In this document: piece by piece, positions 1-55,972 of the stretch
Numbering within the stretch: the first letter of the stretch is position 1
Layout of the letters: each line of letters opens with the position of its first letter
Source: Patescibacteria group bacterium AH-259-L05
GTDB lineage: Bacteria > Patescibacteriota > Patescibacteriia > UBA2591 > UBA6264
Reading direction: 5' to 3'
Length of the DNA stretch: 64,000 nt
Assembly (NCBI GenBank): GCA_027717985.1
Contig: JALLOO010000002.1
Location: 7,257-71,256 of the forward strand
The notes under the pieces: generated by a model
Database searches by the model: none
Seen by the model: the letters and a program-made list of their open reading frames with translations, nothing else
What the model was told of the DNA's origin: nothing
Translations under genes and position numbers: made by a program

Positions 1-1317
1 GTTAATTACTACTGAAATATTTCGTTCAGATGATCCCTGTGCAATCGCTGCAACATTTACGCCTTTATTTCCTAATGCTTGAAATAATTTTCCAGAAACA
101 CCAGGCGTTTTCTTCATATTTTCTCCCACAACCGCAATGATTAATACATCGTCCTCTATAACAACTTTATCTACAAGGTAATGGTTGATTTCGTGTGCAA
201 ATTCTTTTTCAACTGCTTTTTTTGCTTCGTTAGCAAATTGAGATTCAATAGCACAACATATAGAATGTTCAGACGATGCTTGACTGATTAAAATAACACT
301 AATATTGTTTTGGGCTAAAGCGCCGAATAATCTTTGCGCAATGCCGGCGACACCAATCATTCCTGCTCCATCAATACGTAAAAGCGCAATACGCTCAATT
401 GATGAAATCCCTGTAATTCTCGTACGGCTCGGTGCCTGACTAATTATAGTGCCGTTAAATTGAGAGTTAAAGCTGTTTTTAATTCGAATCGGAATAATCT
501 TTTCTCGCGCAGGCCGAATTGTTGGCGGATACAACACGTTAGCTCCAAAATAAGACATCTCCATTGCCTCTTCATAACTCATATTCTCAATCGAGCGCGT
601 ATTAATAACTTTTTTGGGATCCGCACTCATCACACCGTCAACATCAGTCCAAATCTCTATCTCGTCTGCGCCTAATGCAGCTGCGAATAATGCTGCAGTA
701 TAATCTGATCCGCCCCGCCCCAATGTAGTTGTATTTCCTTTGTCAGAAAAAGCAATAAATCCCGTAATAACTGGTATATTAGTAAAACGCTTAAAATAAT
801 GTTTAATATTATGTTGCGTTGTCTTATAATCCACCTCTGCCCGGCCAAAATGCTCATTAGTTATAATAATCTCTCGTGCATCTAAAAATTTAGCATCAAT
901 CCCTCGTGCTTTAAACGCCTCGCTCATAATAATGGCGGAAAATCGTTCACCAAAACTCATGATTAAATCAAGGTCTTTTAAAGATACACTCTGCGCCTCA
1001 AACACGTTATTCAATATTTTATCAAGATCGTTTATCATTGCCTGAACTATTGCTATTGCATAATTTTGTCTCTGACTCTTGATAAGATTGCGTATCAATG
1101 CTATGTGCCTTAACTCTAACCGTTTGAGAATTTCACTATAATTTTGACCCTTGCTCGCTATCGTAGCTAATTTTATTAACTCATCAGTCACGCCGCCAAC
1201 TGCAGATACCACAACTGCTATATGACCCTGGTCTCTTGATTTAACTATAAGATCAATCACATTGTTAATGCGCTCCGACGTTTTTAATGATGATCCCCCA
1301 AACTTGAGTATTCTCAT
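1..1317 (-). CDS. lysC: aspartate kinase, 3'-truncated by the window edge (at least 439 aa)
   Basis: Minus-strand frame from ATG at 1315-1317 reads MRILKFGGSSLKTSERINNVIDLIVKSRDQGH...GRGGSDYTA... and ends with two ACT-like repeats (IALLRIDGAGMIGVAG..., LIIAVVGENMKKTPGVSG...). It is absent from the ORF track only because it runs off the edge. Confidence 0.8.
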   Translation of the reverse strand, partial: MRILKFGGSSLKTSERINNVIDLIVKSRDQGHIAVVVSAVGGVTDELIKLATIASKGQNYSEILKRLELRHIALIRNLIKSQRQNYAIAIVQAMINDLDKILNNVFEAQSVSLKDLDLIMSFGERFSAIIMSEAFKARGIDAKFLDAREIIITNEHFGRAEVDYKTTQHNIKHYFKRFTNIPVITGFIAFSDKGNTTTLGRGGSDYTAALFAAALGADEIEIWTDVDGVMSADPKKVINTRSIENMSYEEAMEMSYFGANVLYPPTIRPAREKIIPIRIKNSFNSQFNGTIISQAPSRTRITGISSIERIALLRIDGAGMIGVAGIAQRLFGALAQNNISVILISQASSEHSICCAIESQFANEAKKAVEKEFAHEINHYLVDKVVIEDDVLIIAVVGENMKKTPGVSGKLFQALGNKGVNVAAIAQGSSERNISVVIN

Positions 1318-1414
1318 AGAGTTAGGAGGAGGGCTTCGCCGCTCCTCTATACTATATAAATGGTTCGTTCGGTCGAAATACAAGTAAACTTTCATTTCTC
1401 CCTCGCTGCCATTT

Positions 1415-1450
1415 ATAAACAAAACCGACTTCATTTGTGGCTGAAGTCGG
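1415..1450 (-). terminator. attenuator terminator hairpin CCGACUUCA-GCCACAAA-UGAAGUCGG followed by UUUUGUUUAU
   Basis: A perfect 9-bp stem plus U-tract lies between the leader peptide and lysC. The 5' arm can alternatively pair with GGCUGAAGU, which overlaps the leader stop codon, to form the antiterminator. Confidence 0.6.
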
Positions 1451-1485
1451 CTGTAAATAGTTATCTTATACTACAACAAACTTCA

Positions 1486-1536
1486 GCCACCTGAAGTGGT
1501 TGTCGTTGTCGTGGTAGTCGAATTTATCTGAGTCAT
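1486..1536 (-). CDS. Thr-rich attenuator leader peptide MTQINSTTTTTTTTSGG (17 aa, stop TGA at 1483-1485)
   Basis: ATG ACT CAG ATA AAT TCG ACT ACC ACG ACA ACG ACA ACC ACT TCA GGT GGC TGA read on the minus strand. AGGA sits 8 nt upstream of the ATG. It lies about 165 nt upstream of the aspartate kinase start. Confidence 0.6.
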
Positions 1537-1613
1537 ATACATTATCCTAAACAATATAAAATAGATGTCAAACACCTCAACTGTGGATAAATAAAATTAA
1601 CATCGGGTGCCAA

Positions 1614-44722: not shown

Positions 44723-44820
44723 CAGGACTTACAAATGTGAAAGTAAACTTTCCCATTTGATTCGTCCTTAGGAATTATAGAGCAAAAATCGTAAATGACA
44801 AGAAAAGTTATCCACACCTC

Positions 44821-50049: not shown

Positions 50050-50352
50050 TATTGTTTTTGTCATTTCGACCGAGCGAACGAAGTGAGCGAGTGGAGAAAT
50101 CTCATACGTTTACGATAAATGAATGGTGTGAGATTCCTCGTCACGACTACGTCGTGACTCGGAATGACAAGGTGGGAGGTTTACTCGCTCTTCGTAAAGA
50201 CTTTTTCAGAGGTCTCATAATAAGAACCTTCCTTACTTTGTTCGGAGGAACTTTGAAGAGATATCTTTGATGTCATTGCGAGGAGCAGAGCGACGAAGCA
50301 ATCTCATGTATGAGATCCCTCGCTGCGCTCGGGATGACACTGCGTGTCATTT
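50050..50352. repeat. block of long imperfect palindromes of the GTCAT...GGATGACA family plus one AAGAACC-family element (50213-50252)
   Basis: tgtcattgcgaggagcagagcgacgaagcaatctcat/atgagatccctcgctgcgctcgggatgaca, and gtcatttcgaccgagcgaacgaagtgagcga...gtcgtgactcggaatgaca. Confidence 0.55.
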
Positions 50353-50377
50353 ATATCCAAACTTTAATATAACATTT

Positions 50378-51499
50378 ATGAAATTCTCTTGCCGTCAAGA
50401 AAATATATCGTATGGATTAAATATAGGCTCAAAAATTGCCGGAACATCAAAAAGTAGCCTTCCAATTTTAAATAATGTTCTTTTATCTGCTGAATCGGGC
50501 ACTCTTATAATCAGTGCCACAAATTTAGAAATGGCAATTGAAGTAAAAATCCGCGCAAAAGTAGAAAAACAAGGTAAAATTACTATCCCCGCACAAATTT
50601 TAAACAATTATATTAATTTATTAAATGAAAATGAAGTACTTAATTTCAAAGCAGTAAAAAATGAACTTAACATTACCAGTGAAAATCAAAAAACAAAGAT
50701 AAAAGGAGAATTCGCAGAAGAATTTCCTATTATCCCTCATATTGAAAGCAAAGAACAATACATACTAAAGAGTAAAACACTAAAAAATGCATTAGAAAAA
50801 ACAGTATTTGCAATCTCAAGCACTGAAGTAAGAGCTGAATTAAGTGGAGTTCTCTTTTCATTCAATACACCACATGATAATAAAATAACACTAGTAAGTA
50901 CTGATAGTTATCGTCTTTGTGAAAAACAAATTGATATTAAAAAAACCTCACATAAAAATAAAAAAAACATTATTATACCGGTAAGAACATTAGTTGAACT
51001 TTTAAGAGTTATTAAAGATAAAGATGATATAGAAGTATCAGTTTCAGAAAACCAAGTATTATTTAAATATGATGACGTAGAGATAATAACACGAATTATT
51101 AGTGGAGAATTTCCTAATTATAAGAGCACCATACCACCAGAATTTAGAACCAAAGTGCTTATTAAGAGAGAAAGCTTTTTAACTGCGGTAAAAGGAGCCG
51201 GATTTTTTACTCGTTTAGGCGTTAACGATATTAATATACAGTTTATAGCTAAAAATAATAAGTTAGTAGTTTCTTCTTTAAATAATCAGTTAGGGGAAAA
51301 TCAAACAACATTAAAAGCAGATATTAGTGGTGAGGATAATGAAATTGTTTTTAATTATCATTACTTAATTGATGGTTTAACTAATATAAAAGGAAAAGAG
51401 GTTAGTTTAGAAATCGTAAATGATAATATGCCAGGCGTGATACGATCAGAGGACGACAAACATTATCTATATTTAATAATGCCAATTAAGAACTCATAA
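50378..51499 (+). CDS. dnaN: DNA polymerase III beta sliding clamp
   Basis: MKFSCRQENISYGLNIGSKIA...LPILNNVLL. The ORF-track N-terminal 37 codons are repeat-derived. Confidence 0.85.
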   Translation: MKFSCRQENISYGLNIGSKIAGTSKSSLPILNNVLLSAESGTLIISATNLEMAIEVKIRAKVEKQGKITIPAQILNNYINLLNENEVLNFKAVKNELNITSENQKTKIKGEFAEEFPIIPHIESKEQYILKSKTLKNALEKTVFAISSTEVRAELSGVLFSFNTPHDNKITLVSTDSYRLCEKQIDIKKTSHKNKKNIIIPVRTLVELLRVIKDKDDIEVSVSENQVLFKYDDVEIITRIISGEFPNYKSTIPPEFRTKVLIKRESFLTAVKGAGFFTRLGVNDINIQFIAKNNKLVVSSLNNQLGENQTTLKADISGEDNEIVFNYHYLIDGLTNIKGKEVSLEIVNDNMPGVIRSEDDKHYLYLIMPIKNS

Positions 51500-54932: not shown

Positions 54933-55706
54933 TTATTTTTTATTGGGCAAAACAAAATAGTTTAAAAAGTTTAGCAAAATTTTTTCTGTTTGACCAGTTT
55001 TTTTAATAGATAAAAGCAATTTTTTAAATTCGTTTTCATTGTTCACAAAACCTTCTTTTATCAAGCCTTGTTTATATTGTTTTGTTTTAGTTGTCATATG
55101 ATGATAAGATAATTCTGGATGAAATTGAACAGTTCTTGTATAGCTGTTTATAGCGAGTGATTGAATTTCGCATAGATCAGAAGATGCAAGCAATTTCCCT
55201 TTCGTGTTGATATTTTTAACCATACATTTATGACTTGATTGAACAAAAAAATTTTCAGGAACTCCCTTAAATAAAAGGTCTTTCGTTCCATTTTTGGTAA
55301 GCGTTAGTGGTATGGTTCCGAATTCTCTTCCTTGTGGATTATAAATCACCGTTCCTCCCAAAGCTCGTGCAATAAATTGGTGCCCCCCACATACGCCAAG
55401 TAAAGGAATGTGTGTATTGATTGCTGTATTAATAAATTTGTATACATTTTTCATCCAGTGGTTTTCATCACTTGGTATTGGATGCTTTGCTGATCCACCA
55501 ATAATGATTCCATGATATTTTTTTGGATCAGGAAGCTGTTTTTGAGCAGCATCAACGGTGATAAATTCATCTTTTTTTAGATTTAATTTTTTTCTAAAAA
55601 GTTCTGCGTAAGGACCTTTTGTCACTTTTTCTTCTTGTTTTTTTGATTCTAAATTATCAGTTAAAATATCAAGAAATAGTAATTGTAATTTTTTATTATT
55701 TTTCAT
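54933..55706 (-). CDS. class I glutamine amidotransferase-like protein
   Basis: HIPLLGVCGGHQFIARALGG (Cys-His GATase1 motif). Confidence 0.65.
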   Translation of the reverse strand: MKNNKKLQLLFLDILTDNLESKKQEEKVTKGPYAELFRKKLNLKKDEFITVDAAQKQLPDPKKYHGIIIGGSAKHPIPSDENHWMKNVYKFINTAINTHIPLLGVCGGHQFIARALGGTVIYNPQGREFGTIPLTLTKNGTKDLLFKGVPENFFVQSSHKCMVKNINTKGKLLASSDLCEIQSLAINSYTRTVQFHPELSYHHMTTKTKQYKQGLIKEGFVNNENEFKKLLLSIKKTGQTEKILLNFLNYFVLPNKK

Positions 55707-55972
55707 ACGTTTAGAATATAAAATAAAACTAGCTTTCTGTTTTTGGAAAGCTGGTCTGATCTATGTTGCGTTGTTATATAATTCTTTAATTTACTAAATC
55801 AAATACTAACTTTCCATCAGAAAGCCATGTAGCCCAATAGTTGCAAGAGTTATTTTTTGAAAAGTTAGTCATATGCAAGTAAGTTTATATAAGAAATAAA
55901 ATTTGGTCAATACTATCTATTGTGGATAAGTTATACTCTTAAAATTTGGCAGTTAAGATAGTATACCTTTTG

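Follow-up and report, generated by a model that had tools for sequence, protein, structure and literature searches.

How a member of the Patescibacteria might control its threonine pathway is the question raised by a very short open reading frame (ORF) with a run of threonine codons, located upstream of an aspartate kinase gene in Patescibacteria group bacterium AH-259-L05. The locus is contained in a 64,000-nt stretch of this genome, referred to here as the window (GenBank assembly GCA_027717985.1, contig JALLOO010000002.1, positions 7,257 to 71,256 of the forward strand); coordinates are those of the window, and the features described lie on its minus strand unless otherwise indicated. The comparison of related loci and the folding of the leader with a modeled ribosome indicate that the element is very probably a ribosome-mediated Thr leader-peptide transcription attenuator of the E. 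coli thr type, which would control a threonine-pathway operon beginning with thrA.

The leader ORF and the alternative hairpins

The leader ORF (1483..1536) has its ATG at 1536 and its TGA stop at 1485-1483, and its 17 codons specify MTQINSTTTTTTTTSGG. As an initial reading of the letters without database searches (hereafter, the sequence-only reading) had described, the ORF contains eight consecutive Thr codons (ACU ACC ACG ACA ACG ACA ACC ACU, 1518-1495), and its single Ile codon, codon 4, is outside this run. No other run of at least five Thr codons is present in any frame of either strand of the 64-kb window, and among 200 shuffled sequences, one contained a run of at least six.

The end of the ORF overlaps a set of four segments that can pair in alternative ways. 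Segment 1 (1491..1509) has the core ACUUCAG at 1497-1491, which is extended on its 5' side by the Thr codons ACAACGACAACC, and its partner is segment 2 together with the subsequent UUGUUGUAGU. Segment 2 (1479..1490, GUGGCUGAAGUU) holds the last leader codon and the UGA and can pair with segment 1 or segment 3; the stop is contained in the part GGCUGAAGU at 1488-1480. Segment 3 (1437..1452, AGCCGACUUCAGCCAC, with CCGACUUCAGCC at 1450-1439) can join segment 2 as the 3' arm of an antiterminator, or segment 4 as the 5' arm of a terminator. The last element (1415..1433) consists of segment 4 (UGAAGUCGG, 1433-1425) and the U-tract UUUUGUUUAU at 1424-1415.

Folding of the minus strand yields stable alternative structures from these segments. 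In prefix folds, the core of the 1:2 hairpin has an energy of -8.5 kcal/mol, and its extended form, in which the Thr codons ACAAC pair with GUUGU (within UUGUUGU), reaches -15.6 kcal/mol. The 2:3 antiterminator reaches -26.6 kcal/mol and shares the segment 3 strand with the terminator, so that the two are mutually exclusive. The 3:4 terminator (1452-1415, -16.2 kcal/mol) has an 11-bp stem followed by UUUUGUUUAU and is also detected by an intrinsic terminator scan. These structures and energies bear out the earlier proposal of mutually exclusive 1:2, 2:3 and 3:4 hairpins with the stop codon inside them. The fold of the whole region is better than that of shuffled sequences (z = -6.2, with 0 of 200 shuffles equally good). 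The feature set is not the product of chance, because the fold surpasses the shuffles, the scan finds the 3:4 hairpin, and the window has no other such Thr run.

The regulated gene

The gene downstream of the leader is cut by the window edge, and its 5' part occupies 1..1317. Its best NCBIfam profile is NF006959, bifunctional aspartate kinase/homoserine dehydrogenase I (AK/HSDH I), which is matched over profile positions 1-444 of 819. The window fragment is identical at 439 of 439 residues to P0002, an 851-aa AH-259-L05 protein with homoserine-dehydrogenase Pfam domains, and the orthologue in the sister genome AH-259-L07 reaches 973.8 bits with the AK/HSDH I profile, for which the cutoff is 726. 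Because the full-length protein contains the homoserine dehydrogenase domains and AK/HSDH I is the best NCBIfam match, the regulated gene is, on the basis of these profile and domain assignments, thrA, which encodes the bifunctional enzyme as in E. coli, and not lysC as had originally been assigned. In the public annotation, ThrA starts at MRIL.

Conservation of the leader in related loci

A Thr-run leader precedes thrA in five other loci, which were compared with the window to give a set of six: the sister single-cell genome AH-259-L07 (L001), a Logan contig (L091) and three distant metagenome contigs (L011, L012 and L041). The ThrA of L001 is 80% identical to that of the window by tblastn and 85% identical in a MAFFT alignment, and its gene order matches that of the window (PHP, PP2C, leader, thrA, asd). 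The leader of L001 is MIQLMLTTTTTTTTTSGG, with all four segments retained, and the end of its terminator is 9 nt from the thrA ATG. This gap leaves no room for a separate promoter, which argues that thrA of L001 is transcribed only through the terminator. In L091, ThrA is 57% identical and the upstream PHP gene 59% identical; the leader is MNQRIIFKKFIITNTTTTTTGS, and the layout GCUGAAGU / ACUUCAG / GAAGUCG is the same as in the window and L001. The more distant L011, L012 and L041 (ThrA 50-56%) contain Thr-rich leaders that have their terminal GGC-UGA within GGCUGA(A/G)G, and each has a matching terminator downstream.

In all five of these relatives, the Thr-run ORF ends with GGC-UGA or AGC-UGA within segment 2. 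The loci preserve the frame of the ORF, its run of Thr codons and the UGA in frame within segment 2, while the peptide differs in sequence and length; such a pattern is to be expected only of an ORF that is translated for the sake of its codons. The genes upstream of the leader also differ, with PHP in L091, dapD in L011 and divergent neighbors in L012; because the upstream genes of L012 are divergent, the hairpin there does not serve to end transcription of a preceding gene.

Base-pair counts over the alignment of the six leaders point to compensatory change in both alternative helices. For the 3:4 terminator, 89% of the cells are paired, compared with 16-46% when the partner strand is slid, and four pairs are changed on both sides (C-G to U-A, A-U to G-C and U-A to C-G), a number reached by 3 of 500 shuffles. 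For the 2:3 antiterminator, the six loci share a core of six pairs that are either unchanged or altered in a compensating way, with an only moderate shuffle control (35 of 500), and the same holds in all six for the GCUGA(A/G)G of segment 2. In L041, which is GC-rich, GAAG is replaced by GAGG in segments 2 and 4 and CUUC by CCUC in segment 3, so that one set of changes leaves both alternative helices intact.

A metagenome scan returned no relative above 56% identity, and L092 (ThrA 53%) was set aside, with 69 nt of upstream sequence only. For most other ThrA homologues (44-53% identity), no leader was found. Three such loci are shown with their flanks (L093-L095), in which thrA is located behind leu genes in a leuCDB-thrA-asd-thrB-thrC cluster; by name, the proteins of this group are Ignavibacteria- or Bacteroidetes-like.

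Folding with a modeled ribosome and the proposed mechanism

To represent the translating ribosome, a footprint of approximately 27 nt was masked and the remaining transcript was refolded. At equilibrium, the probability of the terminator in the window is 0.00 for ribosomes stalled at Thr codons 7-13 and 0.95-0.97 for ribosomes at the last Thr codon or the stop. The masked folds thus show the geometry that attenuation requires: a stall on the Thr codons frees segment 2, and a ribosome at the stop masks it. L001 displays the textbook pattern at equilibrium, with the terminator in the absence of a ribosome, the antiterminator upon stalling and the terminator for a ribosome at the stop.

When applied to E. 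coli thrL as a control, the equilibrium masked-fold model fails to show the known switch; the model is therefore conservative, and its negative results for L011 and L012 were given no weight. The equilibrium model was replaced by a kinetic proxy, namely the probability of segment 3 being paired at a point where segment 4 is yet to be transcribed. This proxy recovers the switch of the E. coli thrL control, with 0.75 when stalled and 0.01 at the stop, and the window and its relatives show a contrast in the same direction. The values for the window are 0.90 stalled and 0.21 at the stop, and those of the sister genome are close to them (0.87 and 0.22, respectively). The corresponding pairs are 0.89 and 0.37 for L091, 0.72-0.48 and 0.33 for L011, 0.69 and 0.43 for L012, and 0.82 and 0.63 for L041.

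In the mechanism that we propose, transcription would start within the 77-nt intergenic region between PP2C and the leader, and a ribosome would translate the leader while RNA polymerase moves on. When charged tRNA-Thr is plentiful, the ribosome would reach the UGA and cover segment 2, the 3:4 hairpin would form with the U-tract, and transcription would terminate before thrA. A shortage of charged tRNA-Thr would instead stall the ribosome on the eight Thr codons, where it would cover segment 1 and leave segment 2 free; segment 2 could then capture segment 3 in the 2:3 antiterminator, the terminator would not form, and thrA would be transcribed. The response to threonine in vivo is predicted from this scheme. 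The E. coli thr-type architecture suggested by the sequence-only reading is thus strengthened by its conservation in relatives, by compensatory changes and by folding that depends on the state of the ribosome.

Observations that weigh against an attenuator

Several observations count against this interpretation or narrow it. The support derives from sequence and folding models for an uncultured organism, and the covariation is drawn from six sequences only. The 1:2 hairpin is in register only in the window and L001, and not in L091, L011, L012 or L041. In the window without a ribosome, the equilibrium fold is the antiterminator, with 2:3 nested in 1:4; since the 2:3 helix is so stable that the equilibrium favors it when no ribosome is present, the default of an untranslated leader in the window may be read-through and not the super-attenuation of E. 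coli.

The signals for translation of the leader are also modest. The Shine-Dalgarno (SD) sequence, which had been called good, is an AGGA located 8 nt from the ATG, and it is considered weak because it overlaps a candidate -10 element; the strong SD sequences of this genome are AGGAGG at 6-7 nt. Depending on the promoter that is used, the leader, which lacks a strong SD, may have almost no 5' untranslated region. An SD-like motif is present in 17 of the 47 window ORFs, compared with a background of 12%.

Finally, the terminator and thrA are separated in the window by a spacer of approximately 97 nt (1318..1414) that is genome-specific: L001 lacks it, L091 has an unrelated sequence in its place, and the window contains it only once. 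The spacer could in principle carry its own start signals for thrA. It contains an in-frame ATG at 1395-1393, preceded by GAGGGAG at a spacing typical of the strong SDs of this genome, and with no stop before MRIL this start would add 26 residues to ThrA (MKVYLYFDRTNHLYSIEERRSPPPNS). The consensus scan of the thrA strand found no promoter in the spacer matching at least 9 of 12 positions. A GC-rich hairpin, GAGGAGCGGCGAAGCCCTCCTC (GAGGAG/CTCCTC, 1347-1326), is also present in the spacer of this AT-rich genome. The hairpin had been noticed before and does exist, but the proposal that it sequesters the SD does not hold, because it is 23 nt upstream of the MRIL start codon and belongs to an insertion unique to the window genome. 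The spacer was also considered as a repeated mobile element, and this was rejected, with no second copy in the window.

Alternative explanations

The position of the 3:4 hairpin, approximately 160 nt after the co-directional PP2C gene and separated from thrA by the spacer, would suit a terminator of the PHP-PP2C unit, in which case the Thr-run ORF would be fortuitous or non-functional and thrA would have its own promoter. The comparative data largely refute this explanation, which we regard as highly improbable: a Thr run with its stop in segment 2 is retained in six loci with different upstream genes, the arrangement in L001 places thrA behind the terminator with no room for another promoter, the spacer of the window offers no promoter at the threshold of the scan, and the Thr run has no counterpart in the window. 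Another possibility is that an ancestral attenuator is partly bypassed or modified in this genome by the insertion, which would bring a new SD and the start ATG at 1395, or a weak promoter, so that regulation differs from that of the sister genome. The insertion is indeed specific to the window genome, and its in-frame ATG has the well-placed GAGGGAG and an open frame into MRIL. However, the public annotation begins ThrA at MRIL, all of the attenuator elements are intact and fold as expected, the insertion contains no convincing promoter, and a new start codon would not spare transcription the need to cross the terminator; a bypass appears very unlikely.

Control by a factor acting in trans would leave the ORF untranslated, with the leader responding to a T-box-like tRNA, a riboswitch ligand, an RNA-binding protein or a factor that binds TTATCCACA, a 9-mer upstream of the leader. 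The weak SD and the conserved, protein-binding-like motif in which this 9-mer lies are compatible with such control. Against it, approximately two thirds of the window genes likewise have no SD, and the retention of the frame, the Thr run and the UGA in segment 2 despite a varying peptide is difficult to understand for an untranslated sequence. The T-box or riboswitch variant was rejected, with no match to such a family in Rfam, whether at E <=10 in a search of 1200-1750 or over the whole window at the gathering threshold. Trans-acting control of this kind is considered extremely improbable, and the leader-peptide attenuator remains the preferred explanation.

The promoter region

The sequence-only reading had reasoned that the promoter would need to lie inside the PP2C coding region and had named one weak candidate, TTGAGG-16-TATATT. 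This concern is unfounded: the 77-nt intergenic region between PP2C and the leader contains two pairs of promoter-like elements in the consensus scan: TTGAGG (1580-1575) followed after 16 nt by TATATT (1558-1553), and TTGACA (1571-1566) followed after 16 nt by TAGGAT (1549-1544). A -10-like TATATT/TATACT is aligned in the window, L001 and L091.

Immediately upstream, the 16-mer TTTTATTTATCCACAG (1581..1596) is invariant in the window, L001 and L091 while its flanks diverge, and may be a binding site for a regulator. It encloses, at 1590-1582, the perfect DnaA-box 9-mer TTATCCACA, the center of which is approximately 40 nt upstream of the presumed transcription start. Three exact copies of the 9-mer are present in the window, compared with 0.58 expected, and all are apparently situated between ORFs of at least 150 aa. 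The other two window copies are at 44808-44816 (plus strand) and 55921-55929 (minus strand), and further copies are found in L001 (5783-5791 and 5822-5830) and L091 (725-733). With up to one mismatch, 34 boxes are present in the window against 19.6 expected, with no clear clustering near dnaN (50267-51499) in the window.

The copy at 55921-55929 was considered as the mark of a Trp attenuator and rejected, the downstream genes being those for a glutamine amidotransferase and a carboxylate-amine ligase. The sequence downstream of this copy (55715-55929, minus strand) could be another 5' regulatory leader: TTGACC follows 10 nt after the 9-mer, a 28-codon ORF (55872-55786) without an obvious run of a single codon comes next, and a 7-bp hairpin (55753-55731) and a T-run lie between this ORF and the glutamine amidotransferase ATG at 55706.

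The operon and its host

The content of the operon beyond the window edge is deduced from L001 and L091. In L091, the order is thrA, asd, a P-loop kinase gene and thrC, and the same kinase follows asd in L001. This kinase, of approximately 213 aa (L091 4445-5086; L001 9843-10330), has only a weak N-terminal match to the NCBIfam 'homoserine kinase' exception model NF040667. The usual homoserine kinase, ThrB, is of the GHMP type; the P-loop kinase encoded in its place is a candidate for a non-canonical homoserine kinase in this lineage.

The host is accepted as a member of the Patescibacteria, or Candidate Phyla Radiation (CPR), represented by a single-cell genome, as its sequence affiliations indicate. 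The window AtpA is 100% identical to an AH-259-L05 protein; its named nearest relatives are nearly all Patescibacteria (such as Kuenenbacteria, Moranbacteria, Kerfeldbacteria and Portnoybacteria) at approximately 70% identity, and the AtpA of AH-259-L07, which NCBI places in the Patescibacteria group, is 93% identical. The nearest ThrA homologues outside AH-259 (approximately 52% identical) are, where named, mostly from Ignavibacteria, Bacteroidetes and other non-Patescibacteria, which hints that the thr operon may have been acquired horizontally.

Comparison with known attenuators

The Rfam family RF00506 (Thr_leader) aligns with the window leader over its full length in the 551-nt search, with a score of 24.7 bits (E = 0.021) against a gathering score of 55, and the whole-window Rfam search at the gathering threshold does not return it. 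The relatives score 22-26 bits with Thr_leader. Reciprocally, model R1, a covariance model of the present leader family that replaced a strict regular expression which missed true members, matches E. coli thrL with 24.3 bits. Because the Thr_leader score is so far below the threshold, the leader is, by these model scores, a new and uncatalogued sequence family of a known kind of attenuator, distinct from RF00506; common ancestry with thrL and an independent origin are both possible.

The resemblance to E. coli thrL extends to the build of the whole element. Both are located directly upstream of thrA, the bifunctional AK/HSDH I gene. Each has a small leader ORF containing eight Thr codons, and the final Gly codons and UGA of this ORF fall within the strand complementary to the 5' arm of the terminator. 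The pairing strands are GGUGCGGGCUGA and GCCCGCAC...GUGCGGGC in E. coli and GGUGGCUGAAGU and ACUUCAGCCAC...UGAAGUCGG in the window. In both, segment 2 resembles segment 4 and an intrinsic terminator forms the end, and the ribosome-masked folding follows the same course in the kinetic proxy. The two systems also differ in several respects: the E. coli leader contains eight Thr and four Ile codons, whereas the regulatory run of the window is composed of Thr only; the window ThrA is 37% identical to that of E. coli; the operon is thrABC in E. coli and thrA-asd-(P-loop kinase)-thrC in the relatives of the window; the antiterminator of the window is much more stable and prevails at equilibrium without a ribosome; and the host is a member of the Patescibacteria.

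Other leader-peptide attenuators, such as trpL, hisL, leuL, pheL and ilv in Proteobacteria, trp, ilv and leu in Actinobacteria and his in Firmicutes (PMC1262725, PMC2965389), follow the same logic, with tandem codons for the end product, alternative terminator and antiterminator structures and coupled transcription and translation, but differ in the amino acid, the operons and the sequence families. T-boxes and the S-adenosylmethionine (SAM) and Lys riboswitches perform the same task of prematurely terminating transcription of aspartate-pathway genes, but they sense uncharged tRNA or a metabolite without translation. SAM riboswitches are present before two distant ThrA homologues (36-38% identical), in L053 (1460-1584, 64.9 bits) and L055 (2629-2755, 32.3 bits), which indicates that the same enzyme family is under different RNA sensors across lineages.

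A different Thr leader, MFNNSIITTTTTTTTGIARRRVS, is present in L042 (34-177) before a ThrA homologue that is 46% identical. Its Thr_leader score of 46.6 bits is below the gathering score, which suggests that the Rfam threshold misses relatives of thrL more widely. Additionally, L011 contains at 184-328 a second leader of the same build, upstream of dapA-dapB-dapD, with the mini-ORF MNFTPGFIKSKKNKKDAPFRC (5 Lys in 7 codons), the terminator CCGGCTTTAGC...AAGCCGG followed by nine T, and a score of 35.4 bits with model R1. As a candidate lysine leader-peptide attenuator it would be unusual, given that lysine genes are normally controlled by riboswitches.

Implications

The CPR is a reduced, largely auxotrophic radiation in which amino-acid biosynthesis and its regulation are rarely seen. 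Some leader peptides were reportedly also predicted in Bacteroidetes/Chlorobi and Thermotogales by Vitreschak et al. in 2004. Most documented cases of leader-peptide attenuation come from Proteobacteria, and a smaller number from Actinobacteria and Firmicutes (PMC2965389, PMC3766115); leader peptides had been known only in Proteobacteria and Actinobacteria before Naville and Gautheret added the Firmicutes (PMC2965389). In the literature searched, we found no report that links Patescibacteria with leader-peptide attenuation and none on the threonine genes of the CPR.

A far-reaching reading would combine three elements: that this is the first recognized leader-peptide attenuator family of the Patescibacteria, that it constitutes an uncatalogued thrL family with the stop inside GGCUGAAG in several uncultured lineages of approximately 35% to 69% GC, and that its promoter is activated or repressed through the DnaA box TTATCCACA near -40. 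We consider this combination unlikely. If it were true, transcription of the threonine operon would be tied to DnaA or another box-binding factor, and at least some CPR bacteria would make their own threonine and rely on the coupling of transcription and translation for its regulation.

Current RNA-family libraries miss this thrL family, and such leaders are consequently under-annotated in uncultured lineages, where covariance model R1 could be used to annotate them. The understanding of attenuation itself is unchanged by the finding. For the organism, a Thr attenuator at this locus would mean that some members of the CPR keep a regulated pathway from aspartate to threonine and that their transcription and translation are probably coupled closely enough for attenuation to operate.

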